50,014 nt of DNA from a virus (IMGVR_UViG_3300046719_000027:1-50014); one strand, 5' to 3'; counted from the stretch's first letter, positions 35,656 through 49,784 are shown. Translations and numbers: made by a program. The notes: a model not told the origin generated them from the letters alone.

Positions 35656-35662
35656 TTAACTA

Positions 35663-35691
35663 GGGAGGTCCAACTAGGATCTCCCTTTTTT
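35663..35691 (+). terminator. Rho-independent terminator
   Basis: GGGAGGTCC-AACTA-GGATCTCCC followed by TTTTTT. Confidence 0.85.
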
Positions 35692-36004: not shown

Positions 36005-36443
36005 CATAGTAGTAGTATGTATAGTAGATATATACATATATACTATGTATATATAGTATGTATGTATACCTATATATAATATAGTATTAACATATACACA
36101 TATAGTATTAACATATATACATAATAGCCTATATATATCTACATATACACATATCTACATGGGTATGCACCGGTATTAACATTCCTACATAGAAATACCT
36201 ACTAGTTCATGTTAATAAGAATGAACATGAATATCATTGACATACACGTATGTGTGTGGTATACGCACGCGTACGTGCGTGTGTACGCGTACGCGTGCGT
36301 CCTATCTACCTACCCTGCCCCAGTTCCTTCTCTTCAGTAGGTAGGCTACCTTAAGTAGGTAGGCTACCCTATGAATATAGGTAGGCACTGCACATGTGCA
36401 GTCGTTATAGTTAGCACCAATGAGATTGACTACTGAGATTGAC
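36005..36443. repeat. AT-rich/RY-alternating tract with direct repeats (origin- or terminus-like)
   Basis: 18-mer ATATAGTATTAACATATA x2, AGTAGGTAGGCTACC x2 plus a partial copy, TGAGATTGAC x2, 42-nt perfect RY run. Confidence 0.6.
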
Positions 36444-36649
36444 CGGCGGAGCTAACTCAGCTCCTCTCGATTAAATCAGAATTCATTCTTAATTAGTTCA
36501 GACCGTACGTACCTTTACAAAATCCCATAGCTCGCGATCCTCTCTATGTGAGGGGGCGCATATGAGTAAGAGAAACCCCACTTGCTTACGGGAACATCCC
36601 GCGCATTTGTTCGGATCTCTTGCTAGCCTTGGTGTTACATACTTCTATC

Positions 36650-37605
36650 GCAGTGAACCGGCCCGGTTCTGGCGGTAGTCACGTACTAGCAACGGTCTAG
36701 TGAAGCTATCGAAGATGTAGAGGGTGCTGTGTGGAAGGGTAAAACACCTGCGGCGTGCCAGGAAAAGGCAACTCGTCTGTGGTCAGAAATCGCAATGTGC
36801 GACCGAAAACCTCATTCGGGGCGTTCGTCGGCTAGCAATTACCACAGTGGTGCAGATTCGGCCCCGAAAGGGGAGATGCGCAAAACCGGCATTCGTCGGA
36901 AGTACCCTAGGAACGTTCAATGCAATCTGAACGCATACCGTAGTGGCCGAGAAGTCAAAACGAACTGCCAGAGTTCGTATCGACTCGGTACCTTGCTCAT
37001 AGATGGGATTCAATCGACTAGCGGCGTTTCTACCGCTAGAACCGAAAAACTGAGAGGCAACTCAGCTAGGAGTCGAAAGACTAAGTAGCCAGAACCCAAG
37101 CGAGTAGCGTTAGCGCTCGTGCGTGACACGTTCGTAGTTGGGACCGGTGACGTATCCACGGCGAAGTGAGATCACATCAAACAGTCGCTACCAGGGAACG
37201 CGCCAAGAGTCTGAGAAACCTCCCTAAAGCTCTGAGATCGATTCTCCGGGCTAAGAACTGGCGAGACGAGCTAGAACACCACCTAGCGCTTAACGAGGCT
37301 TAGATAGCCTCCGAGAGCGCTAGAGACGGTTCTAGCGGGAATCTCGGCTAGTTCCCTACATCGGTTCTAGACCACCGCTAGGGTTCGTGCCAGTCACCAT
37401 AGAACTGGCCTACGAACTCAGAACCAACCAACTACCAGCCTAGTAAGTAGAGTGCCAAGGAAGTTAGTAGTTTGAACTCACTCAGTGAGAAAGCGAACAC
37501 TTCCAACGGTCTGCTGAATTCCCGGTAGCGTTCTGAGTTCACATCAGTTAGTCGAGCTGAGAGCTACGGGCGGGCACAAAATCCGTACCGCGTTCTCAGT
37601 TCCTA
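36650..37605 (+). ncRNA. Candidate large (~950 nt) structured non-coding RNA
   Basis: No convincing CDS; dense hairpins, GNRA loops and long-range complementarities; ends at the first twister ribozyme. Confidence 0.6.
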
Positions 37606-37677
37606 CTGTTGTAACCGTTCATAGTCAGATATCCAAAAGACTGACCTACTGCCTTAGTAGAACCGGGATGGCAACAG
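37606..37677 (+). ncRNA. Twister ribozyme T1 (expanded-L4 variant), predicted cut 37612^37613
   Basis: P1 CTGTTG/CAACAG, TAA..GATGG, P2 CCG/CGG, P4 GTCAG/CTGAC, pseudoknots CCA:TGG and TC:GA, P5 present. Confidence 0.8.
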
Positions 37678-37689
37678 AGAGATAAACCA

Positions 37690-37842
37690 ATGACCTACAT
37701 AGTCAAGTGGGAAACGCTGAACGGAAACGTTCTGTGCAAGCGCTTCACTGATTCCGCTCTGGCAGAGAAGTTCTATCAGCGCAAGCTCGATACCTCCGCC
37801 ACCTACGGCACTCAGTGGGTCGATATGGAGGCCATCAGCTAA
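37690..37842 (+). CDS. Small hypothetical protein (50 aa, not in ORF track)
   Basis: MTYIVKWETLNGNVLCKRF...; starts 12 nt after T1. Confidence 0.65.
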   Translation: MTYIVKWETLNGNVLCKRFTDSALAEKFYQRKLDTSATYGTQWVDMEAIS

Positions 37843-37986
37843 ATGAACTACATCATCACCTACACCAAGTACGGATGTGTTTTTCGTGCTCGGCGCGGTA
37901 CCAAGAGTGCCGCTGCTGAGCTAGCTCGTGATCTCAAGTCAAGCAACAATCTTCGCCCGGTTGACGTTTCGATCTATAAGGTGTGA
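37843..37986 (+). CDS. Small hypothetical protein (47 aa, not in ORF track)
   Basis: MNYIITYTKYGCVF...; SD GGAGG, TAAATG junction. Confidence 0.65.
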   Translation: MNYIITYTKYGCVFRARRGTKSAAAELARDLKSSNNLRPVDVSIYKV

Positions 37987-38020
37987 GACGATGTGAGAGT
38001 TCACATCGTCTCATCGATAG

Positions 38021-38090
38021 AGTTGTAACTAGTCACTGCGAGACATCCAAAAGACTCGCCCACCATTTAAGTGGAACTAGGATGGCAACT
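38021..38090 (+). ncRNA. Twister ribozyme T2 (expanded-L4 variant), cut 38026^38027
   Basis: P1 AGTTG/CAACT, P2 CTA/TAG, P4 GCGAG/CTCGC, CCA:TGG, TC:GA. Confidence 0.8.
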
Positions 38091-38105
38091 GAATCGGAGT
38101 TAGAC

Positions 38106-38312
38106 ATGGCACGTATCATCCGTACTTCTGCAATCGTGGCCGCTCTGTTCGTTGTTGGTGTTGGTCTCAACGCCGCTGCGGTCAGTGACGAGCGTCAGGT
38201 AGGAGTCCACGTCTACCATACCGCTTCCCGTACGGGCGTGTTCGTCGGCAACTGCTACGATTTCAGTTTCGGCGTGGACACTCAGAATGGCATCTACCGT
38301 GATGCCTGCTGA
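38106..38312 (+). CDS. Small secreted/membrane protein
   Basis: MARIIRTSAIVAALFVVG signal-like start; SD GGAG; start corrected from track. Confidence 0.65.
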   Translation: MARIIRTSAIVAALFVVGVGLNAAAVSDERQVGVHVYHTASRTGVFVGNCYDFSFGVDTQNGIYRDAC

Positions 38313-38318
38313 GTGTCC

Positions 38319-38389
38319 GAACTGTAAATGGTCAATGTGAGATATTCCAAAGACTCACCTAGCACTAGCTAGTACCATGAGGACAGTTC
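38319..38389 (+). ncRNA. Twister ribozyme T3 (expanded-L4 variant), cut 38325^38326
   Basis: P1 GAACTG/CAGTTC, P2 ATG/CAT, P4 GTGAG/CTCAC, TCC:GGA, TC:GA. Confidence 0.8.
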
Positions 38390-38406
38390 CTAGAAAGGAA
38401 ATAGAA

Positions 38407-38667
38407 ATGGCTCAGTTTGTTATCCGTGAGAAGTCCACCAAGCCCTCTTTCGCCGATCAGCTCCCGAACGCGACTGAGTTCGCCAAGGATCATCCGTTTG
38501 GAACTGAGGCCGACTTCGGCGATGGTGTCGTCTACGTTCTGACCGCTCCTCGTGACTGTTCGTGGCAGCCGAAGCGTGGTCGGGCCGCTGGTTCCACCAA
38601 CAGCACCAAGGCAACTGCTGGGCCGGAGACGGCTCCCGAGTCCAAGCCTGAGAAGCCTGCCAAGTAG
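38407..38667 (+). CDS. Hypothetical protein
   Basis: MAQFVIREK...; SD AAGGA. Confidence 0.7.
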   Translation: MAQFVIREKSTKPSFADQLPNATEFAKDHPFGTEADFGDGVVYVLTAPRDCSWQPKRGRAAGSTNSTKATAGPETAPESKPEKPAK

Positions 38668-38712
38668 CCCAGACCTGAGAGTGGGAAATCAATTCCCACT
38701 CTCACTGATTCG

Positions 38713-38776
38713 TACTGTAAAGCTACCTAGCTCATGCTAGCTGGTCTAAAGTCCAGATAAAATGCTGATAGCAGTA
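38713..38776 (+). ncRNA. Twister ribozyme T4, cut 38718^38719
   Basis: TACTG TAA AGC TAC [P3] CTGG TCTAAAGT CCAG .. GCT GATAG CAGTA. Confidence 0.9.
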
Positions 38777-38788
38777 AGGAGTTAGACA

Positions 38789-39007
38789 TTGGGATTGAAG
38801 CCAGGTTCGCTAGCCTTTCGTCGGATCGTCAACTACGATCCTGTTACTCGCATCGCAACTCTTTCTTGCGATCATACCGTCACTGGTATTTGGCCTGACA
38901 CTGCTACCAAATCACATCTGGCTTGTGTGAAGTGTGAGCGTCCACACCGAACCACCCGACCACGTCAGCGCAAACCATTTTGGCTGACTGGTGTACCAGT
39001 CGCCTAG
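38789..39007 (+). CDS. Small Zn-binding protein
   Basis: LSCDH...CVKC; SD AAGGAG, TTG start. Confidence 0.6.
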   Translation: MGLKPGSLAFRRIVNYDPVTRIATLSCDHTVTGIWPDTATKSHLACVKCERPHRTTRPRQRKPFWLTGVPVA

Positions 39008-39025
39008 AACTCTGGAGACAACCTC

Positions 39026-39157
39026 ATGTGTGATTTTCACCGTGCCATGAACATTCCCGCTGATTGGTGGGCGCGCAAGGATCGCAAGATGTTGCGCCGT
39101 ATTGCCAAGCGGCGCTTGCGGCACACTCTCCGTTGCCGCATCTCCAACTACCGTTAG
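39026..39157 (+). CDS. Small Arg-rich protein (43 aa, not in ORF track)
   Basis: MCDFHRAMNIPADWWARKDRKMLRRIAKRRLR...; SD GGAG. Confidence 0.55.
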   Translation: MCDFHRAMNIPADWWARKDRKMLRRIAKRRLRHTLRCRISNYR

Positions 39158-39159
39158 AA

Positions 39160-39221
39160 GCGTTAACCTCTCTAGTCAGAGTCATACACTCTGCTACACA
39201 TCTAAAGAGAGTGATAGGCGC
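39160..39221 (+). ncRNA. Degenerate/minimal twister-like element
   Basis: GCGT TAA .. TCTAAAGA .. GATAG GCGC retained, but P4 reduced to ~1 bp. Confidence 0.45.
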
Positions 39222-39231
39222 AGGTTTTTAT

Positions 39232-39396
39232 ATGCTTTCTATCACGGTTAAGCTCACCAATGGCGATGCCATCGAATTCTCTGCCCCAAACGAGTACACA
39301 GAGTTCAAAATGGTCGGCTCTGACGCATCCCTGCCCACGGATGTCGCTCTTTACCTCGACAATCTCTATTCGTTCGCCGACCATGTCAACTCTTAA
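39232..39396 (+). CDS. Small hypothetical protein
   Basis: MLSITVKLTNGDAIEF...; start corrected from track. Confidence 0.6.
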   Translation: MLSITVKLTNGDAIEFSAPNEYTEFKMVGSDASLPTDVALYLDNLYSFADHVNS

Positions 39397-39404
39397 CGCT
39401 TTGC

Positions 39405-39473
39405 AACTGTAAACCTACCAAGCCGGTCTAAAGTCCGGAACCTACTATTTAGTAGGAAATGGTGATAGCAGTT
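39405..39473 (+). ncRNA. Twister ribozyme T5, cut 39410^39411
   Basis: AACTG TAA ACC TAC .. CCGG TCTAAAGT CCGG [P5] GGT GATAG CAGTT. Confidence 0.92.
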
Positions 39474-39492
39474 CACAAAAAGGAATACATAA

Positions 39493-39762
39493 ATGAGCAT
39501 TTTTGATAACGTCACTGTTGGCGATGACAACCGCAGGCCAGTCAAGGCTCACGGTGCCTATACTGATAGGGATTTCATCATCACCAACCTGCGCGCGTCA
39601 GTAGATTTCGCGCGGAACTACGCTGGTGATCGATCCCTGGCCATGGCCATGCTGCTGGGATCTCTGGGAACGATCGTTTCCGGACTTTCTGGAATCCCTC
39701 ACAATGAAATTCAAGATCTGATTACTCAGCTCTGGGAGGATAATCCCAATTGGAACCGTTGA
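39493..39762 (+). CDS. Hypothetical protein (paralog of 42796-42993)
   Basis: SD AAGGA; VSGLSGIPHNEIQDLI motif. Confidence 0.7.
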   Translation: MSIFDNVTVGDDNRRPVKAHGAYTDRDFIITNLRASVDFARNYAGDRSLAMAMLLGSLGTIVSGLSGIPHNEIQDLITQLWEDNPNWNR

Positions 39763-39768
39763 TTGGTA

Positions 39769-39831
39769 GCTGTAACCTGGCCAGTTCACTGAACTGAGAG
39801 TCTAAAGCCTCTATAAACTAGTGATAGCAGT
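39769..39831 (+). ncRNA. Twister ribozyme T6, cut 39773^39774
   Basis: GCTG TAA CCT GGC [P3] AGAG TCTAAAGC CTCT .. AGT GATAG CAGT (one P2 mismatch). Confidence 0.8.
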
Positions 39832-39852
39832 GAGTTGGGAGACTACATCTTT

Positions 39853-40092
39853 ATGTATCACTTCTTTGTTATGGCCGCGTGTCTGGTTGGACTTGTAATC
39901 AACAGCATTTTCGGTTGGGTTCATTTTTCCAACAACGATCTAGCCTGCCTCGTGTTCGCAGTCGCACTCGTCATCATGATCGATCTTCGGATCATCACCA
40001 ACGGACTCAGTAGCGCTTTTCAGACCATCTACGATAACCACACTGTTATCGCTCGTGGTCTGGACATCATCAACGCTAAGCTAGCCAAGTAA
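39853..40092 (+). CDS. Two-TM membrane protein
   Basis: Hydrophobic N-terminal half; SD GGGAG. Confidence 0.65.
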   Translation: MYHFFVMAACLVGLVINSIFGWVHFSNNDLACLVFAVALVIMIDLRIITNGLSSAFQTIYDNHTVIARGLDIINAKLAK

Positions 40093-40110
40093 CTAGCTTA
40101 GTCAGTTCGA

Positions 40111-40171
40111 AACTGTAAACCTACCCTTATGGGCCGTCTAAAGTCGGCATGAGAAAATGGTGATAGCAGTT
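40111..40171 (+). ncRNA. Twister ribozyme T7, cut 40116^40117
   Basis: AACTG TAA ACC TAC .. GCCG TCTAAAGT CGGC .. GGT GATAG CAGTT. Confidence 0.92.
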
Positions 40172-40189
40172 GCATGGGAGAAAAATCCT

Positions 40190-40648
40190 ATGGTGCATGA
40201 GCACACTGACTTTCTAGATTGTCAGTGTTCCTACATGGAAAAGATCGTTCTCAATCCTTCTCAAGTTGCCTTGGATGCTTTGGACAACTTGCAAGGTATT
40301 GAGTTCGATACCATGGTCGGGCGCGGACTCAGTGGCGCATTGGTGATTCCAAAGCTTGCCGATCACTTCGGAGTTCACTGGTACATCGTGAGAAAGCCTA
40401 CCGATTCATCACATAGCACTCTTCTTGGAGAGGGTAGGATGGGCCGCAAGTGGCTTTTCGTGGACGATCTCATTTCCAGTGGCACTACTCTGCACCATAC
40501 AACTCTAGCCATAGAAGAACTCTGCAAAAGGATGAATTGGCAAACCGAATTTGCGGGAGCATACCTGTTCGGAGAATTTCTGGACAGTGAGCCTGTGTAC
40601 CGATCGCCAGAATGGGTCAAATCGTTCATGGCCTATAAGATTTTCTAG
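40190..40648 (+). CDS. Type I phosphoribosyltransferase-like protein
   Basis: VGRGLSG, IVRK, PRPP loop LFVDDLISSGTT. Confidence 0.85.
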   Translation: MVHEHTDFLDCQCSYMEKIVLNPSQVALDALDNLQGIEFDTMVGRGLSGALVIPKLADHFGVHWYIVRKPTDSSHSTLLGEGRMGRKWLFVDDLISSGTTLHHTTLAIEELCKRMNWQTEFAGAYLFGEFLDSEPVYRSPEWVKSFMAYKIF

Positions 40649-40698
40649 CTCCGCCGTTGCCTGTCCAGTGAATGACAATCACTGTCCAGGCAACTGGC

Positions 40699-40763
40699 CC
40701 GTAAACCTACTTATATCCGTCTAAAGTCGGAGACTGGCAAATAGTCAGGAATGGTGATAGCGG
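40699..40763 (+). ncRNA. Twister ribozyme T8, cut 40702^40703
   Basis: CCG TAA ACC TAC .. TCCG TCTAAAGT CGGA [P5] GGT GATAG CGG. Confidence 0.88.
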
Positions 40764-40786
40764 TACCTGAAAAAAGGAACATTGAT

Positions 40787-40978
40787 ATGGCCAAGAATTC
40801 CAAGCGCGTCAGCACCACTGCCCGCCGCCGTCCCAATCGCACGGAAACCAAGGCTACTTGCCTCACCCGTACCGTGGGACGCTCTGAGGCGGCCGCTACG
40901 GCGCCGAACCTGCCCGGGTTGGCGTGGAAGCTCTCGCCGGCAGGAACGTGGTCCTACGTGGTTCTGAGCGGCTCCTAG
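40787..40978 (+). CDS. Small basic protein
   Basis: MAKNSKRVSTTARRR...; SD AAGGA. Confidence 0.65.
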   Translation: MAKNSKRVSTTARRRPNRTETKATCLTRTVGRSEAAATAPNLPGLAWKLSPAGTWSYVVLSGS

Positions 40979-41107
40979 CCATGGTCAGAAACTATCAAGA
41001 CTATCGTAGGTTGGGCTGGAGTCGATACCGTTCGTTCATGCTGGCCTTTTACGATCTTCCGATCTTCAATTAGTGGAGTGAGATATCTCACTCCACTTCT
41101 GTTCCAA

Positions 41108-41163
41108 ACCGTAAAGCTGCTGATACTGGTCTAAAGCCCAGATGAAAAAATGCTGATAGCGGT
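41108..41163 (+). ncRNA. Twister ribozyme T9, cut 41112^41113
   Basis: ACCG TAA AGC TGC .. CTGG TCTAAAGC CCAG .. GCT GATAG CGGT. Confidence 0.92.
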
Positions 41164-41182
41164 AATTGAAAAAGGAAAGGTT

Positions 41183-41575
41183 ATGAGGTATTCGGTTCTC
41201 GATTCTGACATCACGGCAGAATCAAGAGTTGGCGCCGATGGAAAGCGCTACACCGTTAGGGTTTGGCAGAATGCCGGGCGATATCAGTCGGAACTGATTC
41301 TCTGCGCAGCATTCGACTCGGCTAGTCAACTCTGCGATGCCAGTGTTAGCGATTCGGATTCTGGAGAGACGTTCGCTGACTATTTCAAGGCTCCATTTGG
41401 ACTGGATACTTTGGAGTGCGGCCCAGAGCTGACAGAGTCAGAGATCGCCTACGCCAATACGTTTTTTGGTGCCAAGCTGTACTACTCTGGCGACGGTTTC
41501 GTATTCCTTCGGTTTTTGTATTCGGAGCGCGAATACGAACTCAACTACAGTCATAGCGTCGAGAGTGCAGGTTAA
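41183..41575 (+). CDS. Hypothetical protein
   Basis: MRYSVLDSD...; SD AAGGA. Confidence 0.7.
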   Translation: MRYSVLDSDITAESRVGADGKRYTVRVWQNAGRYQSELILCAAFDSASQLCDASVSDSDSGETFADYFKAPFGLDTLECGPELTESEIAYANTFFGAKLYYSGDGFVFLRFLYSEREYELNYSHSVESAG

Positions 41576-41596
41576 TTCCTGCACTCTCTCTCTTCT

Positions 41597-41656
41597 GGAA
41601 AGTAAAGCCGCTAAAACCCGTCTAAAGCCGGGATGCAAAAGTGCTGATAGCTTTTC
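41597..41656 (+). ncRNA. Twister ribozyme T10, cut 41603^41604
   Basis: GGAAAG TAA AGC CGC .. CCCG TCTAAAGC CGGG .. GCT GATAG CTTTTC (P1 fully covaried). Confidence 0.9.
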
Positions 41657-41678
41657 AATGCTCATCGGGAGAAGAAAT

Positions 41679-42041
41679 ATGAGCAAGTACGCGCGGGAAA
41701 TGGAATTGGCTGTTGAGGCTGGTCTCTCGGCATGGATCGCTCCCGACGGTACTTTTCACGCCGTCCCTGAATGCGGACACGAGAGATACTGTCGCGAGCA
41801 TATCTTCGGTCTGCAACCTAATTCCTATGACTTCTGGCAGCACGATGGCGCCAGCAAGCTGGAGAGTCAGGGTTGGCTGCATATCAGTGGTGGCCATGTC
41901 TACCGTAAGGCATCCGTCACTCAGAGTCAGGTAGATATCCTTTTCGACTTCGCTTGTATAGTCGAAAAGAGAGGATATCGTCCTTACGGATTCAAGGCCC
42001 TACAGGAAGGCTTGCATAATCTGATTGAACTTATGTCGTGA
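41679..42041 (+). CDS. Hypothetical protein
   Basis: MSKYAREMEL...WIAPDGTFH..H; SD GGGAG. Confidence 0.7.
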   Translation: MSKYAREMELAVEAGLSAWIAPDGTFHAVPECGHERYCREHIFGLQPNSYDFWQHDGASKLESQGWLHISGGHVYRKASVTQSQVDILFDFACIVEKRGYRPYGFKALQEGLHNLIELMS

Positions 42042-42047
42042 CTTCGC

Positions 42048-42108
42048 ACTGTAAACCTGCCTAGAATATCTAGCCTGTCTAAAGCCAGGATAAAAAGGTG
42101 ATAGCAGT
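42048..42108 (+). ncRNA. Twister ribozyme T11, cut 42052^42053
   Basis: ACTG TAA ACC TGC [P3] CCTG TCTAAAGC CAGG .. GGT GATAG CAGT. Confidence 0.92.
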
Positions 42109-42128
42109 TTTGGAAAAGGAACATAGTT

Positions 42129-42389
42129 ATGTATGTGGATGTTCGCTGGAGTATGGCTGGTCACGAGGGTGAGTATGTTGTGCATCTGCCAGCGACGTTG
42201 GAGTCTGTGAGAATCCCCGGATTTCAGAACGATCCTAGGTATCATCATCTTAAGGAGCTACTGGTTCCAAGACTTTCGGACTATATGATTCTCGACAGAG
42301 GTACTCGCATCGAAATCGTTGGCGAGAGAAATGACGATCTCGTGCACGATGCCTTCTTTGGGCTCGGCTATATCGTTAATAGTGAGTAA
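42129..42389 (+). CDS. Hypothetical protein
   Basis: SD AAGGA. Confidence 0.7.
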   Translation: MYVDVRWSMAGHEGEYVVHLPATLESVRIPGFQNDPRYHHLKELLVPRLSDYMILDRGTRIEIVGERNDDLVHDAFFGLGYIVNSE

Positions 42390-42395
42390 GAATTA

Positions 42396-42614
42396 ATGAG
42401 TTATCGTAGTCAGAAACTGGCGCTAGCCTTGAGTCTAGCAATCGTCTGGATCGGCGGTTTTGGCTTTGGCATGACCTACATGTCATCGTTTCACCCGCAT
42501 TTCTACGGATCATCAGAGACTGCCAACACTGGTGTGGTTATCATGGATTGTGGTCTCGGATTCGAGTTTCGAGGATCTCCAGGATTCTTCATTGAGACTG
42601 AGTGCAACACCTAA
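42396..42614 (+). CDS. Small membrane/secreted protein
   Basis: N-terminal TM, two Cys. Confidence 0.6.
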   Translation: MSYRSQKLALALSLAIVWIGGFGFGMTYMSSFHPHFYGSSETANTGVVIMDCGLGFEFRGSPGFFIETECNT

Positions 42615-42719
42615 CACGTACTCAATGGACGGCAATAGGTATAATCTGGGTTGGTGGATTGGTTATGGGATGGGGAATTGGATTCATTATGGGTTCGCTA
42701 ATCCATCTACTTTAGGTTC

Positions 42720-42779
42720 GTAGTTGTAATGACACCGTAGGCCGTCTAAAGTCGGCATGAGAAAGTCAGATAGCACTAC
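42720..42779 (+). ncRNA. Twister ribozyme T12, cut 42727^42728
   Basis: GTAGTTG TAA TGA CAC .. GCCG TCTAAAGT CGGC .. TCA GATAG CACTAC. Confidence 0.88.
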
Positions 42780-42795
42780 AAACTAGGAGCATCCA

Positions 42796-42993
42796 ATGAT
42801 TATCAATCTCACGATGAGCAAGGAAAGTGTACTCAAGTCAATCAGGGATGACGTGAATAGTTCTCTGATTTATCCAGATGTGAAGATGCGTGCGGCTACA
42901 ATGCTTTCTAATCTCACTTTCACTGTTTCTGACGTCACCGGCATACCTCAGTCAGAGATATCTGATATCGTCAAGCAGATTTTTAATGAGTGA
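42796..42993 (+). CDS. Hypothetical protein (paralog of 39493-39762)
   Basis: SD AGGAG; VSDVTGIPQSEISDIV. Confidence 0.7.
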   Translation: MIINLTMSKESVLKSIRDDVNSSLIYPDVKMRAATMLSNLTFTVSDVTGIPQSEISDIVKQIFNE

Positions 42994-42999
42994 TTCGGA

Positions 43000-43055
43000 A
43001 CTGTAAAACCGCCATAGCCCGTTCAAAGCCGGGATGAAAAAGTGTTGATGACAGT
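43000..43055 (+). ncRNA. Twister ribozyme T13, cut 43004^43005
   Basis: ACTG TAA AAC CGC .. CCCG TTCAAAGC CGGG .. GTT GATGA CAGT (TCA:TGA covariant). Confidence 0.92.
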
Positions 43056-43076
43056 CTAAGGGGAGAAAAAAGCCTC

Positions 43077-43571
43077 ATGTCTGAGAATGTTGCGGTTTAT
43101 GATACTGCGGCAAAATACGCTACCAAATGGCTTAGCATCAATTGCGATTGGCCTACTCGAATTGGGTCAATGGAATTCCTGGGATGTGGTAGTGTTCGTG
43201 CAGCCTACAGCATTCCCGGCGGAGCAACAGTTCTTAAGGTTTCCGGTGAAATTGATAATGAGCAACACGATGCGGAAATCATGATTTGGGAATCGGCCCC
43301 GCCAAGGTTGCGCGAGCATTTGGCTGCGATCCATTTCTATGGCGAGGGCTGGATCATCGCCGAACGCGCTACGATAGTGGAAAAATCAGAATTTGACTCT
43401 AGCGACGAAATCTATTACTGGACGCGGCACATGGAAGATTATTGGGGAATTACGGATCTCCGATTCAACCGCTGCAATGTCGGTCGTAAGGCCAATGGCA
43501 AGCTTTGCGCGGTTGATTACTCCGGTGGCTACAATCTCCCAAATATGAGCAATTGGGCCGCTATGGCCTAG
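43077..43571 (+). CDS. Minimal protein-kinase-like fold protein
   Basis: G-loop LGCGSVRAAY, VLKV Lys, alphaC Glu, catalytic DLRFNRCN, VDY. Confidence 0.7.
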   Translation: MSENVAVYDTAAKYATKWLSINCDWPTRIGSMEFLGCGSVRAAYSIPGGATVLKVSGEIDNEQHDAEIMIWESAPPRLREHLAAIHFYGEGWIIAERATIVEKSEFDSSDEIYYWTRHMEDYWGITDLRFNRCNVGRKANGKLCAVDYSGGYNLPNMSNWAAMA

Positions 43572-43584
43572 TTCATGGGTTCGG

Positions 43585-43648
43585 AACTGTAAACCTGCCT
43601 AGCTTAGCTAGAGAGTCTAAAGCCTCTGAAAAAATGGTGATAGCAGTT
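43585..43648 (+). ncRNA. Twister ribozyme T14, cut 43590^43591
   Basis: AACTG TAA ACC TGC [P3] AGAG TCTAAAGC CTCT .. GGT GATAG CAGTT. Confidence 0.92.
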
Positions 43649-43666
43649 GATACAAAAGGAATTTAC

Positions 43667-43981
43667 ATGGCGGACTACAATCCGTGGGTCACAGTGGGTT
43701 GGGTAAATATTGACGAGTACCTTTATAAGGTGCGCGTCAATGGTTACCAGATTCTCCACCAAGATGAGCAAATTCTGGTTGTGAGAATTCCGCCCGATGC
43801 TGGCAGAATTGTTCATTGGCACATCTTGGAATGGTCTAATTCCGATCCTGTACATCGGATGATGTGGCTTAGCCAGACGATTCGTAGGGCGCGGATGCGT
43901 GAGGTGCTCGTGCATCGATTGGGTGCCGAAAAGGGTAACTCAATCATTGATGACGCTTCAAAGATGGAGGCAAGCGGTTAA
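43667..43981 (+). CDS. Hypothetical protein
   Basis: MADYNPWVTVG...; SD AAGGA; start corrected. Confidence 0.7.
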   Translation: MADYNPWVTVGWVNIDEYLYKVRVNGYQILHQDEQILVVRIPPDAGRIVHWHILEWSNSDPVHRMMWLSQTIRRARMREVLVHRLGAEKGNSIIDDASKMEASG

Positions 43982-43983
43982 AA

Positions 43984-44172
43984 ATGCTAAATGATGTCGA
44001 CATTAGGGGGGTTGCTACCAATCTTCGCAAGTTGGCAAGCGATCCACTTCTAAAGAAGAGATTCACTTCAGAAACGCGCAAGGATATGAATGATCTTGCC
44101 AATACGATCATGGCTGCATATCCTAGTTCTGATGTGCCGCTGGTTTCTTACCAGAGTGAGCGTCCTAAGTAA
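43984..44172 (+). CDS. Hypothetical protein
   Basis: 62 aa, starts 2 nt after previous stop. Confidence 0.6.
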   Translation: MLNDVDIRGVATNLRKLASDPLLKKRFTSETRKDMNDLANTIMAAYPSSDVPLVSYQSERPK

Positions 44173-44192
44173 CACTCACTCTTGGATCTTAG

Positions 44193-44250
44193 CCGTAAAC
44201 CTGCTAAACCCGTCTAAAGCCGGGGACCAAATTGGGAATGGTGATAGCGG
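44193..44250 (+). ncRNA. Twister ribozyme T15, cut 44196^44197
   Basis: CCG TAA ACC TGC .. CCCG TCTAAAGC CGGG .. GGT GATAG CGG. Confidence 0.88.
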
Positions 44251-44269
44251 AAAATGAAAAGGAATAACT

Positions 44270-44560
44270 ATGGTTTATTGGGTTGTTGGTGGTTTTTTCC
44301 TCTGTTATACTGTTGGCATGTTCGTGGGATTTTTATTCTTCTATCCCATGGGCCGAGAGCGTGAACGTATGGACGTACGCACAAGGAAGGCAGCCGAATA
44401 TATCAATGAGAAGTATCGGCAGTACCTGATTTCTCTTGCTATCAATCTATTTCCAAACGACAATGCCAGAATTAACTCATTGAGTATTGATAGACTAGAG
44501 CATCTTCTCAATCACTATAGCGTTTCCTTCAATTCTGATTTGAAGATCACAAAGGTATAA
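44270..44560 (+). CDS. Single-TM membrane protein
   Basis: N-terminal TM; SD AAGGA. Confidence 0.65.
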   Translation: MVYWVVGGFFLCYTVGMFVGFLFFYPMGRERERMDVRTRKAAEYINEKYRQYLISLAINLFPNDNARINSLSIDRLEHLLNHYSVSFNSDLKITKV

Positions 44561-44563
44561 GTA

Positions 44564-44728
44564 ATGGTTTGGATCGTTCTTATTGGAATTCTATTTTCTA
44601 TTGGTTGCTTTTATCTTGGTGTGATAGCTGGATCTAATCATGTAACCAAGGTAATCGCAGCTTGGATGATTAGAAATAACTATCACAATGTTCTGAGAGA
44701 GTTCAATAACCACTTCTCTCGACGTTAA
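44564..44728 (+). CDS. Small single-TM protein (54 aa, not in ORF track)
   Basis: MVWIVLIGILFSIGCFYLGVIAG...; stop 2 nt before T16. Confidence 0.6.
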   Translation: MVWIVLIGILFSIGCFYLGVIAGSNHVTKVIAAWMIRNNYHNVLREFNNHFSRR

Positions 44729-44730
44729 TA

Positions 44731-44802
44731 GCTGTAAACCTACAATCTCCCGTCTAAAGTCGGGGACTAATTTCAATGGGAATTAGGAATGGTGATAGCA
44801 GC
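44731..44802 (+). ncRNA. Twister ribozyme T16, cut 44735^44736
   Basis: GCTG TAA ACC TAC .. CCCG TCTAAAGT CGGG [P5] GGT GATAG CAGC. Confidence 0.9.
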
Positions 44803-44815
44803 AAAAAAGGAAAAT

Positions 44816-46183
44816 ATGAGTATGGCACCTTATCACTATGGACCGGGCAAGGGCCGAACTGTTGAATGTACGTTCTGTAACGCCACGGGACTTCGTTGGG
44901 ACCGTGCCTATATGGAACAGACTAGGTCATCATTCAACAAAAGCGGTCATCATCGGCTTTGGAATCCGACCACTGGTAAGGTCCATGCTTGCTCGGATTG
45001 GATGCGCAAGCTTGAAAGGTGGCCGGGCGGATTGGAACCTGCTACTCAGAACTATAATTCTGAGTCTCAGGAAGAAGATCCTAAGCCAGAGATCACGGCG
45101 CCCGAACCTGTGTCTTCGATAATCGAAAAGGCTATCGGAGGCAGTGCGGTCACGCTGGCAACTGTGACCAACATGGTAAATGCTTCCTATTCCAGGCTGA
45201 AGAGAGAAGCTAGCGAAGCGGATGCGGATATGCTGAGAAGTCTCACTGAGACGGATAAGGGTATCCTGGCCCGCCTCACAGCTAGTGAGACAATTCTCTT
45301 GGATGAGATTAGCAAAGTCTCTGCAAGGGTGGAATTGGCCCGGCCAATTGAAGTCATCATGCCTGATGGCGAAAAGCGTAATGTTGGCCGTCAGCATAAG
45401 CTTTTTCCGGATCTTATGGAGTACGTAAAGCTTCGCCTTAATGTGCTCTTGGTAGGTCCCGCTGGCGGTGGAAAGACTACCGCCACGGAAAAGGCTGCCG
45501 AAGCTATGGGCATGAAATTCTACCTACAGCCAATGGGACCGTCAGTGACGGAATCTAGGTTGCTGGGATGGGTTGATGCCAATGGCAAATTGGTTCGAAC
45601 TCTGTTTCGTGATGCCTACGAACATGGCGGATTGTTCATGGCAGACGAAATGGACAATTCGAATGCGTCAGCGCTAACCACTCTTAACGGCGCACTTGCC
45701 AATGGAATGGTTGGATTCCCTGACGGTATGGTTATGCGACATCCTGACTTTGTGTTTGTTGGTGGAGCTAATACATACGGTCGTGGTGCTGACCGCGTTT
45801 ATGTCGGACGTCAGCAGTTGGACGGCGCTACGCTCGATAGATTCGTAACCGTCGATTGGGATTACGATGAGGATTTCGAGCGGTACTTGGCAGGTACCGA
45901 TACCCATGGTTGGGTCAATTACGTGCAGCAAGTTCGGAAGATCGCTTTCGCTAATAAGTTGCGCGTGCTTGTGAGTCCCCGATCCAGTATTGACGGACTC
46001 ACTATGCTTCGAGCGGGAATTGCCCGTGATAAGGTTGAACTTGTCAGAATCTGGGCGTCTATGCCAGATGATGCTAGGACAACTATCAAAAGCAATCTAA
46101 ATAGGCCAAACAATAGTTACAGTGACAATTCACTCCCAAAGCCTGTGTATAAGGTGCCTTCCAATAGAGAGAAGATATGGTAA
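44816..46183 (+). CDS. MoxR/CbbQ/CobS-like AAA+ ATPase with N-terminal Zn-finger and coiled coil
   Basis: GPAGGGKT, MADEMD, GGANTYG, LDGATLDRF, SPR. Confidence 0.9.
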   Translation: MSMAPYHYGPGKGRTVECTFCNATGLRWDRAYMEQTRSSFNKSGHHRLWNPTTGKVHACSDWMRKLERWPGGLEPATQNYNSESQEEDPKPEITAPEPVSSIIEKAIGGSAVTLATVTNMVNASYSRLKREASEADADMLRSLTETDKGILARLTASETILLDEISKVSARVELARPIEVIMPDGEKRNVGRQHKLFPDLMEYVKLRLNVLLVGPAGGGKTTATEKAAEAMGMKFYLQPMGPSVTESRLLGWVDANGKLVRTLFRDAYEHGGLFMADEMDNSNASALTTLNGALANGMVGFPDGMVMRHPDFVFVGGANTYGRGADRVYVGRQQLDGATLDRFVTVDWDYDEDFERYLAGTDTHGWVNYVQQVRKIAFANKLRVLVSPRSSIDGLTMLRAGIARDKVELVRIWASMPDDARTTIKSNLNRPNNSYSDNSLPKPVYKVPSNREKIW

Positions 46184-46218
46184 GCGGTATCAAATACCGC
46201 TTACCATATAGCCTTAAA

Positions 46219-46273
46219 ACTGTAAAGTAGCCATAGCCTGTCTAAAGCCAGGATGAGAAATACTGATAGCAGT
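46219..46273 (+). ncRNA. Twister ribozyme T17, cut 46223^46224
   Basis: ACTG TAA AGT AGC .. CCTG TCTAAAGC CAGG .. ACT GATAG CAGT. Confidence 0.92.
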
Positions 46274-46292
46274 CATCTAAAAGGAAATACAT

Positions 46293-47138
46293 ATGTTCCA
46301 CAAAGAAGAATTCTCTAGCTTTGCTGAATTTGCAGACAAATCAGCTAACGGACAAAGCCAACTAAATCATGGGGATCGCCATTCACGTACGGGTGATGCT
46401 GGTTGGGCTGGCTGCACTTGGGATGAGGCTGTAAAGCTTTCTAAGTATGGTTGGGCCGAGGGCGCCAAGCGTATAGAGAAAATGGCCTTGCCTTTGCTTG
46501 ACCAGATTTCTACTACTATGCGTAAGCCTGAGATTGTTCTAGATATTGAGGGTGCTGATATTGATGTCGGCGCTTTCATGACTGGCAATCCTGAATGTTT
46601 CATCCGTTGGGATGAAACAGAAGTCAAGGCAACTGCATCCGGTCGATTTGTTCATATCATCTGCAACATCGCGGCTAGCTCTTTCTTCTCCACGGAAGAG
46701 TTGTTCGCCAAGGGCGCAGCGGTTTCTATTCTGGTAGATGCTCTAGAAATGAGTGGACATCGGGTGACTGTAGATGTAATGGAGGCAGTAGGGCCGAGTA
46801 GTTATTGGGGCGAGAAGAACAACAAAAATCGTTACCAACTTACAATCAGGATTAAGAATCCTGAAGATCCTCTCAATATGGAGTCAATCGCTTTCGCTTG
46901 TGCACACTCAGGTATGTTGCGGCGGATGACTTTCAGCGTACAGGAACAGACTCCACCGGAAGTACGTAATACTTTCGGGTTTGGTGGATATGGCAGCTAC
47001 GGAATTCCGGAAGATCCGAAAGAGTTGCCGGAATGCGATATCTATATTGGTTCCACCAACTCGGCCCTAATCAAAAATCCATTGGAGTGGGCAAGAAAGC
47101 AGCTTATAGCGCAAGGCATAGAATTCAACAATGAGTAG
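46293..47138 (+). CDS. Putative VWA-like partner of the AAA ATPase
   Basis: Follows MoxR-type ATPase; DVGAFMTGNPECF and alternating beta/alpha core; canonical MIDAS motif not evident. Confidence 0.55.
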   Translation: MFHKEEFSSFAEFADKSANGQSQLNHGDRHSRTGDAGWAGCTWDEAVKLSKYGWAEGAKRIEKMALPLLDQISTTMRKPEIVLDIEGADIDVGAFMTGNPECFIRWDETEVKATASGRFVHIICNIAASSFFSTEELFAKGAAVSILVDALEMSGHRVTVDVMEAVGPSSYWGEKNNKNRYQLTIRIKNPEDPLNMESIAFACAHSGMLRRMTFSVQEQTPPEVRNTFGFGGYGSYGIPEDPKELPECDIYIGSTNSALIKNPLEWARKQLIAQGIEFNNE

Positions 47139-47162
47139 GGATTAAATTCCCTACTCATATAT

Positions 47163-47221
47163 AGCGTTAAACTGCCTATGTCCTGTTCAAAGTCAGGAAT
47201 GAAAGAACAGTGATGAACGCT
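47163..47221 (+). ncRNA. Twister ribozyme T18, cut 47168^47169
   Basis: AGCGT TAA ACT GCC .. TCCTG TTCAAAGT CAGGA .. AGT GATGA ACGCT (second pseudoknot irregular). Confidence 0.82.
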
Positions 47222-47239
47222 TTAAAAGGGAGCATCGAA

Positions 47240-47542
47240 ATGAAAGAAGCTGAATTTATCGTTGGGTCAGTGGACGGAAAGTATTTCAACAATTCTCTTG
47301 GCGAAATTACTAATGTTTGTCCCAGCTCAGAGTATTTCGATGTTGATACTTGTGAGAATGCTGATATTGGCCTATATGACGAGAATTGTCCGGATTGTGG
47401 CGCACGCCTTATGGTTGCGTGGATGCACGCAACCAATGACGATACTAGACCATTAAAGAGAGGAAAGGCAATAGAGGATTTGAATGACATTATAAGAAAG
47501 GCAAACGAGTCCATTGAAGCACTCAAAAAGGCAAAGACGTGA
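47240..47542 (+). CDS. Hypothetical Zn-ribbon protein
   Basis: CP..C..CPDCG; SD GGGAG. Confidence 0.65.
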   Translation: MKEAEFIVGSVDGKYFNNSLGEITNVCPSSEYFDVDTCENADIGLYDENCPDCGARLMVAWMHATNDDTRPLKRGKAIEDLNDIIRKANESIEALKKAKT

Positions 47543-47549
47543 TTTTTGA

Positions 47550-47608
47550 GCTGTAACCCTACCATTGGCACTGTCTAAAGTCAGTGATGAGAAAATGGGG
47601 ATAGCAGT
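47550..47608 (+). ncRNA. Twister ribozyme T19, cut 47554^47555
   Basis: GCTG TAA CCC TAC .. CACTG TCTAAAGT CAGTG .. GGG GATAG CAGT. Confidence 0.92.
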
Positions 47609-47628
47609 ACAGAAAAGAGTAAAGGTGT

Positions 47629-47826
47629 ATGTACGTATACGATACTAAGATCCGAGTTCGCAAAATGGATAGTGATACTATCCATACTCTCCTCAACAAT
47701 CCTAAGAACGACAATGACCAGCTTACTGCATGTGGCTTGGTTGTCATTTCCAATAACTGGCTTGTGTCTCTTCGTGATGCTGATTGCGAAGAGTGCAATA
47801 CTCGATACCCAACCAAGAGAGGTTAG
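47629..47826 (+). CDS. Small Zn-binding protein
   Basis: H..TACG..CEEC. Confidence 0.6.
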   Translation: MYVYDTKIRVRKMDSDTIHTLLNNPKNDNDQLTACGLVVISNNWLVSLRDADCEECNTRYPTKRG

Positions 47827-47830
47827 TATA

Positions 47831-48178
47831 GTGAATTCAGATCAAGTTCAACAGATTATCGACATGTTCAAGGGTGCTAGTCCAGTACTCTGGAGTGCAG
47901 CTCAGCATCAAGTCCAGGCAGATATCATCTCTGATTATCTGCTAGGTGGAATCTTTTTGCTGTTGACCTGCATTTGTATCGTAGCTTCGGTTATGTTTTT
48001 TAGAATTTACCGAAGATCCGGTATGAGCGGTGAGGCTGCGGTCGTAGGAATTACCATTGCAACTGTTGTCGGAATCTGCACATTCATCTGTGTGTTGGTT
48101 TGCGCCAACGATCTTATCTATAAGTTGGGTGCGCCTGACTATGCGGCGATTCAGCACCTTTCAGAGCTTGTACCTTAA
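47831..48178 (+). CDS. Two-TM membrane protein
   Basis: GTG start with SD GAGG; start corrected from track. Confidence 0.6.
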   Translation: MNSDQVQQIIDMFKGASPVLWSAAQHQVQADIISDYLLGGIFLLLTCICIVASVMFFRIYRRSGMSGEAAVVGITIATVVGICTFICVLVCANDLIYKLGAPDYAAIQHLSELVP

Positions 48179-48187
48179 TATTTCGGA

Positions 48188-48245
48188 GCTGTAACCCTAC
48201 TATGATCCGGTCTAAAGTCCGGAGTGTGAAAATGGGGATAGCAGT
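48188..48245 (+). ncRNA. Twister ribozyme T20, cut 48192^48193
   Basis: GCTG TAA CCC TAC .. TCCGG TCTAAAGT CCGGA .. GGG GATAG CAGT. Confidence 0.92.
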
Positions 48246-48261
48246 AAATGAGGATCTGTAA

Positions 48262-48600
48262 ATGTACGTAGTGTTCGGAGAAGTAATCGACTACGATAAT
48301 ACTCGATGGTGGCTAGTGCATGGATTCCTGGAAAAGGATGATGCAGAAAGGCTCAGGCTAGAGTATCAGAGCGCTCACGAAAGAATTTATCGTGAGTGGA
48401 ACGGTCTATTTCAGAATTTCATGGCAGAAACCGATGCTCTGAGAAAACTCAAATATAGCAAGCGAGGGCCTATCGAGAGGGAAATTGATGATAGGTATAA
48501 ACTTTTGTTCAATGATATCAAGGTTAAACATCCCGATAAGCAATGGGTTCCTGATGAGTGCCTAGCTTACGGGATCATTGAGTTGGAGCTGACACTGTAA
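48262..48600 (+). CDS. Hypothetical protein
   Basis: SD GAGG. Confidence 0.7.
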   Translation: MYVVFGEVIDYDNTRWWLVHGFLEKDDAERLRLEYQSAHERIYREWNGLFQNFMAETDALRKLKYSKRGPIEREIDDRYKLLFNDIKVKHPDKQWVPDECLAYGIIELELTL

Positions 48601-48818
48601 TGGCAAATAGCGAAGCGCTGGATTTTCTTCGCAAAGTTGAACCTCAGCTACATCATTTTGTGGTTCGGCATTGCCCGGGATATCGGGATGATGGACTGAT
48701 AAGCCATTCTTTTTATCCTGTGCATAAACTTATCCAAACCACTCCAGGTGCTGACAGATTTTGGGAAGAGTGTCTAGGATGCACTGCTCAAGAGATTATC
48801 TTGAGAGAATCTGAGTAG
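48600..48818 (+). CDS. Hypothetical protein
   Basis: TAATG overlap; C..H..CLGC. Confidence 0.6.
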   Translation: MANSEALDFLRKVEPQLHHFVVRHCPGYRDDGLISHSFYPVHKLIQTTPGADRFWEECLGCTAQEIILRESE

Positions 48819-48824
48819 TTTGGA

Positions 48825-48882
48825 ACTGTAAAGCTACCTTTAGCCGAGTTCAAAGTCTCGGATGAGAAAAGCTGATGACAGT
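48825..48882 (+). ncRNA. Twister ribozyme T21, cut 48829^48830
   Basis: ACTG TAA AGC TAC .. CCGAG TTCAAAGT CTCGG .. GCT GATGA CAGT. Confidence 0.92.
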
Positions 48883-48897
48883 CAAACGGGAGATGTT

Positions 48898-49125
48898 ATG
48901 ACAAATAAATATAACTCAGTAGCTACTGAATTCAAAGCTACAATAACAGAGGCTTTGATTTTTGGTGAGAAGAAGCGAGCAACTGTACGCCTTGTTGTTA
49001 CAGTAGAGGATGAAAGCAGGCAAGAATTTTCTACTGCGCTGACTCGCGCCATTCTTCATGGAGAAAAGGACCTCGCTGATAAATTCGACGAAAATGTAGT
49101 AAAGGTACGGTTTGATCTGTACTAG
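48898..49125 (+). CDS. Hypothetical protein
   Basis: MTNKYNSV...; SD GGGAG. Confidence 0.65.
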   Translation: MTNKYNSVATEFKATITEALIFGEKKRATVRLVVTVEDESRQEFSTALTRAILHGEKDLADKFDENVVKVRFDLY

Positions 49126-49140
49126 ACTTGCGGCCCTTAA

Positions 49141-49203
49141 GCTGTAAACACACCTAGCAACCTGCTAGCTCGTCTAAAGTCGAGATAAAGTGGTGATAGC
49201 AGT
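49141..49203 (+). ncRNA. Twister ribozyme T22, cut 49145^49146
   Basis: GCTG TAA ACA CAC [P3] CTCG TCTAAAGT CGAG .. GGT GATAG CAGT. Confidence 0.85.
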
Positions 49204-49222
49204 ATTAAAATGGGAGTACTTA

Positions 49223-49387
49223 ATGAATTACTTTTTGCTTTTGATTCTGGCAGTTGCTAGTTTTATAAATTCTCAGTACCATTTGTGGCAGGTTGGCAAT
49301 GGCGACCTTGAACTGCTAATCCTCGTTGTGGGTGCTATTATTATTCGTGAGATCAGAAAGAATAAGGCTCCCAGGATTGGCGGCTAG
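49223..49387 (+). CDS. Small two-TM membrane protein
   Basis: MNYFLLLILAV...; SD GGGAG. Confidence 0.6.
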   Translation: MNYFLLLILAVASFINSQYHLWQVGNGDLELLILVVGAIIIREIRKNKAPRIGG

Positions 49388-49388
49388 C

Positions 49389-49700
49389 ATGTTCCTTTGT
49401 CAGCCGTGTCATACAAAGTCTACAGGCCACGATTTTTGTTTTGGAGCGCCAAGCTTCGGGCCATGTGAAATTTGTAAGTTGGCGGCAGATTGCTCTGACT
49501 GTCGTTGCAAGTCGAAACAGAAACCTAATCTGGATGCTCAAACCCTATTCGATAGCGCTATTTCCGAAACGGACTGGAGTTGCACTGTTCAGGTAGAAAC
49601 TCTACTTGAATTCATCATTGCTGAGTCAGACAACGATCCTAGCTTGCTTGAAAAGTTTAAGCATTACCTACAAGAGGCCGTGGAGGCTGAGAATAGCTAG
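49389..49700 (+). CDS. Cys-rich hypothetical protein
   Basis: MFLCQPCH...GPCEIC...CSDC. Confidence 0.65.
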   Translation: MFLCQPCHTKSTGHDFCFGAPSFGPCEICKLAADCSDCRCKSKQKPNLDAQTLFDSAISETDWSCTVQVETLLEFIIAESDNDPSLLEKFKHYLQEAVEAENS

Positions 49701-49784
49701 GACAGTACAGAGGGAGGCCGTTTCTGAGGCGCTACGGCGCGCGGAGGCGGCCCGTAATGTGCAGAGACGGTCCCAAGTCCGCCT
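49699..49784 (+). ncRNA. Candidate circularly permuted (type P5-like) twister ribozyme, cut 49755^49756
   Basis: ACA GAGGG [long P1 hairpin] TAA TGT GC .. CGG TCCCAAGT CCG; CCC:GGG pseudoknot. Confidence 0.55.

Follow-up and report, generated by a model that had tools for sequence, protein, structure and literature searches.

What does a phage gain by placing a predicted self-cleaving ribozyme in front of almost every gene of a long gene block? The question is raised by IMGVR_UViG_3300046719_000027, a stretch of 50,014 nucleotides (nt), here called the window, which is an entire IMG/VR record from an uncultured tailed phage with an estimated completeness of 74%. Between positions 37608 and 49203, the plus strand contains 22 sequences that fold as type-P1 twister ribozymes, all of them intergenic, and a circularly permuted, type-P5 copy lies further downstream, giving 23 twister folds in the window. 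The answer that we consider likely is that one early transcript would process itself, during its synthesis, into independent expression units.

A structure descriptor applied to both strands of the whole window returned 18 of the type-P1 copies, all on the plus strand and all between 38714 and 48882, compared with a mean of 0.1 matches in 30 dinucleotide shuffles of the 13-kilobase (kb) region. The remaining four (37608, 38022, 38321 and 49141) were recognised by reading the sequence. A covariance model built from the 22 copies recovers the same 22, as it must by construction, and the informative result is that nothing further is found in the window at an expectation value (E) of 1 or below. 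The copies are 55 to 72 nt long and none lies within a called open reading frame (ORF). All 22 precede a start codon, with a Shine-Dalgarno (SD)-like word present in every case and a spacer of 13 to 24 nt from P1' to the start codon, the start codons having been chosen by a script that used the SD as a criterion. The original prediction, made from this sequence alone, had described the same number, strand, length and placement. The predicted cuts are positioned 7 to 113 nt past the preceding stop codon, with a hairpin immediately upstream of 12 of the 22 (z<-2), and the predicted fragments are 277 to 1488 nt in length, with one ORF in thirteen, two in eight and three in one.

The twister consensus has three indispensable stems (P1, P2 and P4), two pseudoknots, a conserved A at the cut, the A that follows it and a general-base G (PMC5408937). 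When the 22 copies are aligned, the U, A and A at the cut site and the G and A of the partner strand, the former being the general-base G, are invariant. By reading, the three-pair pseudoknot is intact in all 22, as CUA:UAG (16 copies), UCA:UGA (3), CCA:UGG (2) or UCC:GGA (1), and the two-pair pseudoknot is intact in 21, as AC:GU (10), GC:GC (8) or UC:GA (3), with a mismatch in the copy at 47164; both tallies agree exactly with those first reported. In a MAFFT alignment of the 22, 91.3% of 345 cells are paired, 13 of 16 pairs have two-sided changes and none of 500 shuffles matches this, whereas 20 to 47% of cells are paired in controls with slid partners, a comparison that favours the structure, as it was defined from the same 22 sequences. 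All five helices, both pseudoknots included, have two-sided changes, and 96%, 81% and 92% of cells are paired in P1, P2 and P4, respectively. Copies 1 to 3 are misregistered in P4 within this alignment, 5 base pairs being evident there by reading. With relatives added, 54 distinct sequences are 94.1% paired (0 of 500 shuffles), in an alignment for which the model guided P1, P2 and P4 but not the pseudoknots. The twister identity and the selection on RNA structure proposed in the original prediction are thus upheld, with two amendments. P2 does stay paired overall, but its fourth pair is mismatched in 15 of the 22 copies, and an 8-nt L4 had been assigned to all copies, whereas the canonical L4 with its closing G-C pair is found in 19, and copies 1 to 3 have a 12-nt loop, as does the first copy in the related contig WNGH01000641.1.

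Core identity is 67% among the copies in the window and 68% between these and the copies in WNGH01000641.1, with a median longest shared word of 9 nt, and concerted evolution, looked for among the window copies, was not seen. As the window copies are no more similar to one another than to those of the related contig, each appears to have been maintained independently by selection rather than to have arisen by recent duplication.

In their P1, P2 and P4 stems, optional P3 and P5, two pseudoknots, U/A cut, conserved A and general-base G, the copies resemble the twisters of Rfam families RF03160 and RF02684. The three-pair pseudoknot differs, being mostly CUA:UAG here and CCC:GGG in the Rfam model, and the window differs further from known twisters in that all of its copies score below the gathering threshold, three have a 12-nt L4, one element has no P4 and 23 diverged copies occur in 12 kb. 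Two observations weigh against reading these folds as cleaving twisters. The RF03160 (twister-P1) gathering score of 67.2 bits is reached by none of the 22 copies, and an Rfam scan of the window at gathering score returned no match; ten copies have sub-threshold matches (best 45.9 bits; E from 1.1e-7 to 0.2). Secondly, copies 1 to 3, with L4 insertions, and copy 18, with a pseudoknot mismatch, carry types of defect that lowered average cleavage in an assay of 2625 natural twister candidates, of which ~94% were cleaved in vitro and in which defects in P1, P2 or P4 were tolerated (PMC11662667). The low Rfam scores are attributed mainly to compensated pseudoknot letters being scored as mismatches. 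All 22 type-P1 folds, together with the type-P5 fold, are assigned to the twister ribozymes from their predicted structure and the conservation of the catalytic bases, the former as members of the class by structure and not of the curated RF03160 family. Eighteen of the 22 appear to have all sensitive parts intact, and copies 1 to 3 and 18 may be slower.

Table 1. Predicted twister ribozymes and other features of the window
Feature	Coordinates	Strand	Predicted cut	Remarks
Twister P1, copy 1	37608..37675	+	37612/37613	12-nt L4 variant
Twister P1, copy 2	38022..38089	+	38026/38027	12-nt L4 variant
Twister P1, copy 3	38321..38387	+	38325/38326	12-nt L4 variant
Twister P1, copy 4	38714..38775	+	38718/38719	P3 hairpin; 42.3 bits Rfam
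Twister P1, copy 5	39406..39472	+	39410/39411	P5 hairpin; sub-threshold Rfam match
Twister P1, copy 6	39769..39831	+	39773/39774	38.0 bits Rfam
Twister P1, copy 7	40112..40170	+	40116/40117	descriptor scan
Twister P1, copy 8	40698..40764	+	40702/40703	descriptor scan
Twister P1, copy 9	41108..41163	+	41112/41113	sub-threshold Rfam match
Twister P1, copy 10	41599..41654	+	41603/41604	sub-threshold Rfam match
Twister P1, copy 11	42048..42108	+	42052/42053	best Rfam match, 45.9 bits, E 1.1e-7
Twister P1, copy 12	42723..42777	+	42727/42728	descriptor scan
Twister P1, copy 13	43000..43055	+	43004/43005	sub-threshold Rfam match
Twister P1, copy 14	43586..43647	+	43590/43591	40.8 bits Rfam
Twister P1, copy 15	44192..44251	+	44196/44197	descriptor scan
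Twister P1, copy 16	44731..44802	+	44735/44736	descriptor scan
Twister P1, copy 17	46219..46273	+	46223/46224	sub-threshold Rfam match
Twister P1, copy 18	47164..47220	+	47168/47169	two-pair pseudoknot with one mismatch
Twister P1, copy 19	47550..47608	+	47554/47555	descriptor scan
Twister P1, copy 20	48188..48245	+	48192/48193	sub-threshold Rfam match
Twister P1, copy 21	48825..48882	+	48829/48830	descriptor scan
Twister P1, copy 22	49141..49203	+	49145/49146	bulged P2; read from sequence
Type-P5 (circularly permuted) twister	49706-49782	+	49755/49756	canonical CCC:GGG pseudoknot, imperfect P1
Twister-like element without P4	39160-39222	+		P1, UAA, P2, P3 hairpin and three-pair pseudoknot intact
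Terminator-like hairpin with U-run	35662..35686	+		ends preceding plus-strand gene block; consensus scan only
Candidate sigma-70-type promoter	36237..36265	+		TTGACA-17-TATACG, TG extension; same hexamers, spacing and TG at L192:1011 (WNGH01000641.1)
Leader, ~1.3 kb, hairpin-rich	36270..37607	+		no convincing gene; between candidate promoter and first ribozyme
ORF block	37690..49700	+		32 short ORFs, mostly 43-164 amino acids, almost all without family; own ORF calls
Phosphoribosyltransferase-like gene	40190-40648	+		after copy 7; phrog_2068, E 2e-32
AAA_5 ATPase gene	44816-46183	+		after copy 16; PF07728, E 2.4e-11
DUF7192 gene	46293-47138	+		after copy 17; PF23822, E 5.4e-35

Two elements extend the array beyond the 22 copies to which the original prediction had confined it. 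The type-P5 copy is matched over its full length by the RF02684 (twister-P5) model at 33.7 bits (E 1.6e-5), below the gathering score of 37.6, and, as the contig ends at 50014, further copies may follow it. In the element without P4, P2 continues directly into the two-pair pseudoknot helix, as a plain extension of P2. A second instance with the same core and a different, but still paired, P3 hairpin precedes an SD and ATG in the contig of one relative (L218:176-236), where it is flanked by homologs of window genes in conserved order. The occurrence of one core in two places is no proof of activity, and the element is not classed here as a twister; if active, it would be a twister with a single pseudoknot. 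A scan of viral contigs with the P4-less pattern gave no match. The 12-nt-L4 variant occupies the first array positions both in the window (37608-38387) and in WNGH01000641.1 (L192:2706-2772), and at the start of the transcript it may confer different kinetics; its pattern was accompanied by the full fold in none of 63 loci scanned.

Ribozymes in this arrangement are also present in related phages. In the 15.5 kb examined of WNGH01000641.1, a 99-kb metagenome contig, there are 13 model matches of the same P1 subtype, all of them preceding a start codon and the foremost being the 12-nt-L4 variant, and the same promoter hexamers occur upstream as in the window. Homologs of no more than 3 of the 31 window ORFs occur in this stretch, in which no structural genes were seen, and the kinship rests on shared genes and motifs. 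An additional twister-like copy with an altered L4 is present at L192:3110-3185; as the model missed it, 13 is a lower bound. In a second relative (G006), whose capsid is 73% identical, the corresponding region is truncated by the contig end, and its beginning carries four type-P5 twisters that score above the Rfam cut-off. A third relative, which is complete (G024, capsid 68% identical, same gene order), has 12 type-P5 copies and one type-P1 copy between 15.2 and 23.8 kb when model and descriptor matches are pooled, and four of these exceed the Rfam cut-off. As the P5 permutation is the main or the sole form in the syntenic region of these two relatives, it is the predicted cut, and not the leader fold, that is conserved. 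Several of the P5 twisters in the complete genome (L374:16994-17800, L375:2668-2777, 3730-3870) hold a repeated three-way junction within the P1 arm, with fixed joining strands (UG, GUUAAAU and AG), and other P5 copies have inserts of 90-230 nt, with no Rfam match at gathering score. Six more fragments have no array, the region being either not covered or not checked in them, and a search that used the AAA ATPase as a probe recovered no relatives.

Beyond this phage group, a P5 pattern scan gave 19 loci, and seven of the 14 records searched have three or more P5 matches, weak ones included (G010, 5; G012, 3; G015, 5; G018, 6; G020, 4; G021, 9; G022, 10). In three of these that were inspected, most copies are positioned ~40-50 nt upstream of a start codon. 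The records were preselected by a twister pattern, and so these numbers give no estimate of frequency. In a separate phage family (L340, L141, L150, L169, L196, L203 and L216), four P1 copies occur in 1.4-1.5 kb, and ribozyme-SD-ORF cassettes have been gained, lost and reordered between near-identical 55-nt copies, giving the orders A-B-C-D, A-E-C-D and A-C-E-D. In a scan of the genome collection, the pattern was matched 31 times, but with the P1 model no match scored higher than 22 bits, and no array was present. With a loose P1 pattern in viral contigs (at least 119 of ~160 loci, of which 100 were scored, 18 unscored and one, L065, duplicates L010), 26 of the 100 scored loci have a single model match and no second within 3 kb. 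Three ribozyme copies compared by blastn with cultured phages gave only short chance matches.

On the reading that we consider likely, the twisters would cleave a long, probably early, transcript as it is synthesised, and host nucleases would not be needed. The transcript would likely start at the candidate promoter near 36.2 kb (36237..36265). The products would be about 22 mRNAs with one to three genes, each beginning at a 5'-OH, with a short, structured leader whose length is fixed (68-84 nt in the window, mostly 40-50 nt in P5-type arrays) and which is directly followed by the SD of that mRNA, and ending in a 2',3'-cyclic phosphate, often shortly after a hairpin. Each gene would then be an independent unit, with the translation and decay of one cistron uncoupled from its neighbours, as with RiboJ, and this independence would also permit the free gain, loss and reordering of ribozyme-SD-ORF units. 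Self-processing into mono- and oligocistronic mRNAs, as the original prediction had it, is the most likely role, although the pseudoknotted leader can no longer be taken as its point: P1-type products would retain the pseudoknotted body, but the P5 twisters of the relatives would leave only a hairpin downstream of the cut.

This reading has to accommodate several contrary observations. Upstream hairpins are found at only 4 of 13 cuts in WNGH01000641.1. The -10 element of the candidate promoter is a 4/6 match and the site was not listed by a general promoter scan; internal promoters are possible, as a good promoter match is present at 23653 inside the array of the complete relative. Promoter-like sites within the window array number 16, compared with 20.9 expected by chance. 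Twisters are absent from three complete, more distant relatives (G027, G030 and G031; capsid 46-59% identical, G+C content 62-72%), which also lack any other ribozyme of Rfam at gathering score, so at the family level the array is dispensable. Lastly, RNase J1 can attack 5'-OH ends: the Bacillus subtilis enzyme degrades the 5'-OH glmS fragment (PMC3997798), contrary to the protection from RNase J that had been ascribed to such ends. For this reason, cleavage may either lengthen or shorten the lifetime of the mRNAs.

The same degradation of the 5'-OH glmS product by RNase J1 (PMC3997798) fits a different role, in which cleavage would tag the mRNAs for fast decay, as with glmS, and the early genes would give a short pulse; P5-type products, which would open with a few unpaired bases before their hairpin, fit this too. 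P1-type products, on the other hand, would have just two unpaired bases ahead of the ribozyme fold, a strong SD follows every cut, a hairpin closes 12 of the 22 upstream pieces, and in P5 types the P1 hairpin would remain with the upstream fragment. For decay, a single cut or a small number of cuts should presumably be enough, making one per gene superfluous, and such a timed shut-off appears unlikely.

Conservation across relatives of only the cut, and not the leader fold, is what would be expected if cleavage served to detach RNA polymerase from the upstream RNA, so that neither Rho nor RNA-targeting defences could track the 13-kb region of small genes. The succession of short ORFs behind a single candidate promoter, separated by long and structured gaps, points the same way. 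Protection from polarity would not require the fixed 13-24 nt closeness to the SD, and this role is quite unlikely; it is compatible with self-processing, of which it could be the main benefit.

Ends with 5'-OH and 2',3'-cyclic phosphate are substrates of RtcB. Each piece would have both, and in 10 of the 21 sets of adjacent copies four P1 base pairs are possible, most P1 strands being alike, so that ligation into circular mRNAs can be envisaged. With the P1' of a given copy, the 5' strand of P1 from the following copy forms 3.24 of 4 pairs, that of random copies 3.23 and its own partner 3.86; the P1-swap register for self-circularisation is not supported, as neighbours pair no better than random copies. 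No RNA ligase family was found among 41 larger ORFs of the complete relative G024 scanned with Pfam, and the hammerhead study detected neither circular nor spliced products in its arrays (Perreault et al. 2011, PMC3088659). Circular mRNAs are accordingly improbable.

The cassettes of the L340-type family, which are bounded by near-identical 55-nt copies and have been gained, lost and reordered, raise the alternative that the repeats are DNA recombination anchors or selfish cassettes, with catalysis incidental, and gene content does differ strongly between the window and WNGH01000641.1. The window copies are too diverged for this, only 2 of 231 pairs sharing 20 nt or more, the catalytic bases and both pseudoknots are retained, and a permuted P5 replaces P1 in relatives, which makes this role very improbable. 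Least probable is a translation switch, in which the 5' flank would mask the SD until cleavage freed it: single copies have sizeable flank-SD complementarity (-9 to -10 kcal/mol at 41599), but own flanks pair with the SD no better than shuffled partners for flanks of 10, 15 and 25 nt in the window (p 0.32, 0.62 and 0.74) or in WNGH01000641.1 (p 0.18, 0.11 and 0.41), and an anti-SD switch as a general rule is thus not supported by this shuffling test.

Self-processing as proposed here has parallels in known systems. The early transcript of T7 is cut between genes by RNase III into short mRNAs with 5'-phosphate ends; a long early transcript would likewise be cut intergenically here, but by the RNA itself and not by a host protein. 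Another parallel lies in the clusters of prophage hammerheads that flank single genes or short blocks, for which processing into operon- or single-gene mRNAs was proposed (Perreault et al. 2011, PMC3088659). As in those clusters, several ribozymes on the same strand flank single genes or short blocks whose identity is not constant. Three triple hammerhead arrays cleaved in vitro and one of these, from Agrobacterium, did so in E. coli (PMC3088659). The arrays tested there had three hammerheads in ~2 kb, larger clusters in the same work being possible, whereas this array has twisters, 23 copies in 12 kb, a fixed SD spacing and conservation in a phage group with permutation swaps. The original prediction knew of no phage that uses ribozymes in this way at this scale, which implied a lack of precedent; the same role had in fact been proposed for these hammerheads (PMC3088659), and it is the scale that appears unreported in the literature searched. 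The HHphage hammerhead of haloviruses HF1 and HF2 is also in an early region, 13 nt ahead of a start codon, and the 5' end of a transcript has been mapped to 3 nt or less from its cut (PMC3088659), but is a single ribozyme in an archaeal virus. Theta ribozymes of gut phages, which resemble those of hepatitis delta virus (HDV), likewise process phage transcripts, but are tied to tRNA genes and not to protein-coding cistrons (PMC10879173). RiboJ similarly places a ribozyme and its structured remainder directly before the ribosome binding site, giving a standard 5' end, and raised protein 2-10-fold and mRNA ~2-fold; it is synthetic, hammerhead-derived and present once per construct (PMC6206723).

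Reviews note a clustering of twisters from bacteria close to phage genes and to other ribozymes, for a purpose described as unexplained, and what most self-cleaving ribozymes of bacteria and phages do is posed as an open question (PMC6765202, PMC10085705). A literature search, which did not extend to figures and supplements, found no account of an array of this size, of a fixed SD spacing or of permutation swaps between related phages. The array combines a ribozyme class and a type of arrangement that are both known, extended to about one ribozyme per gene and conserved across a phage group. More tentatively, it could exemplify an undescribed, recurring architecture, in which whole early regions consist of ribozyme-SD-ORF cassettes with any twister permutation, natural analogues of RiboJ, their genes freed from host RNases and neighbours and swappable, together with new twister forms that include an active one with a single pseudoknot and without P4. 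As standard annotation misses sub-threshold twisters, such arrays may be common. With 23 natural copies in one operon, and relatives that swap permutations and genes, the array opens the processing hypothesis proposed in 2011 to a direct test by means of cloned fragments and point mutants of the catalytic bases, for which the lack of a cultured phage is no obstacle. The array also supplies diverged natural insulator parts with little shared sequence.

The structural genes (terminase, portal, Gp23-type capsid, neck, tail and tape-measure) are encoded on the minus strand at 576-30101; the terminase is only ~26% identical to those of the closest cultured phages. The array genes are judged to be early from their small size, their position and the candidate host-type promoter. 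Relatives also have long leaders, with only short blocks in common with the one that precedes the first ribozyme here (36270..37607), which could contain non-coding RNAs, for instance one that acts in antitermination. A low-complexity, AT- and AC/GT-rich stretch surrounds the candidate promoter (35990-36310), with a similar stretch before the promoter in WNGH01000641.1 (L192:840-980), and is possibly an origin or genome end region. The minus-strand gene at 29466-30101 has the PHROG label 'RNase E' (phrog_645, E 5e-23), but more likely encodes the small terminase, as it immediately precedes the large terminase gene and this placement is conserved in relatives. Directly after the capsid gene, the minus strand at 9360-18168 encodes glycosyltransferases, a nucleotide-sugar epimerase, an aminotransferase and methyltransferases, a block that is partly conserved in relatives and suggests virion glycosylation. 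Two array genes, 39493-39762 and 42796-42993, are paralogs (27.6% identity over 58 amino acids, E 1e-6), and a third member of this family is present in L218.

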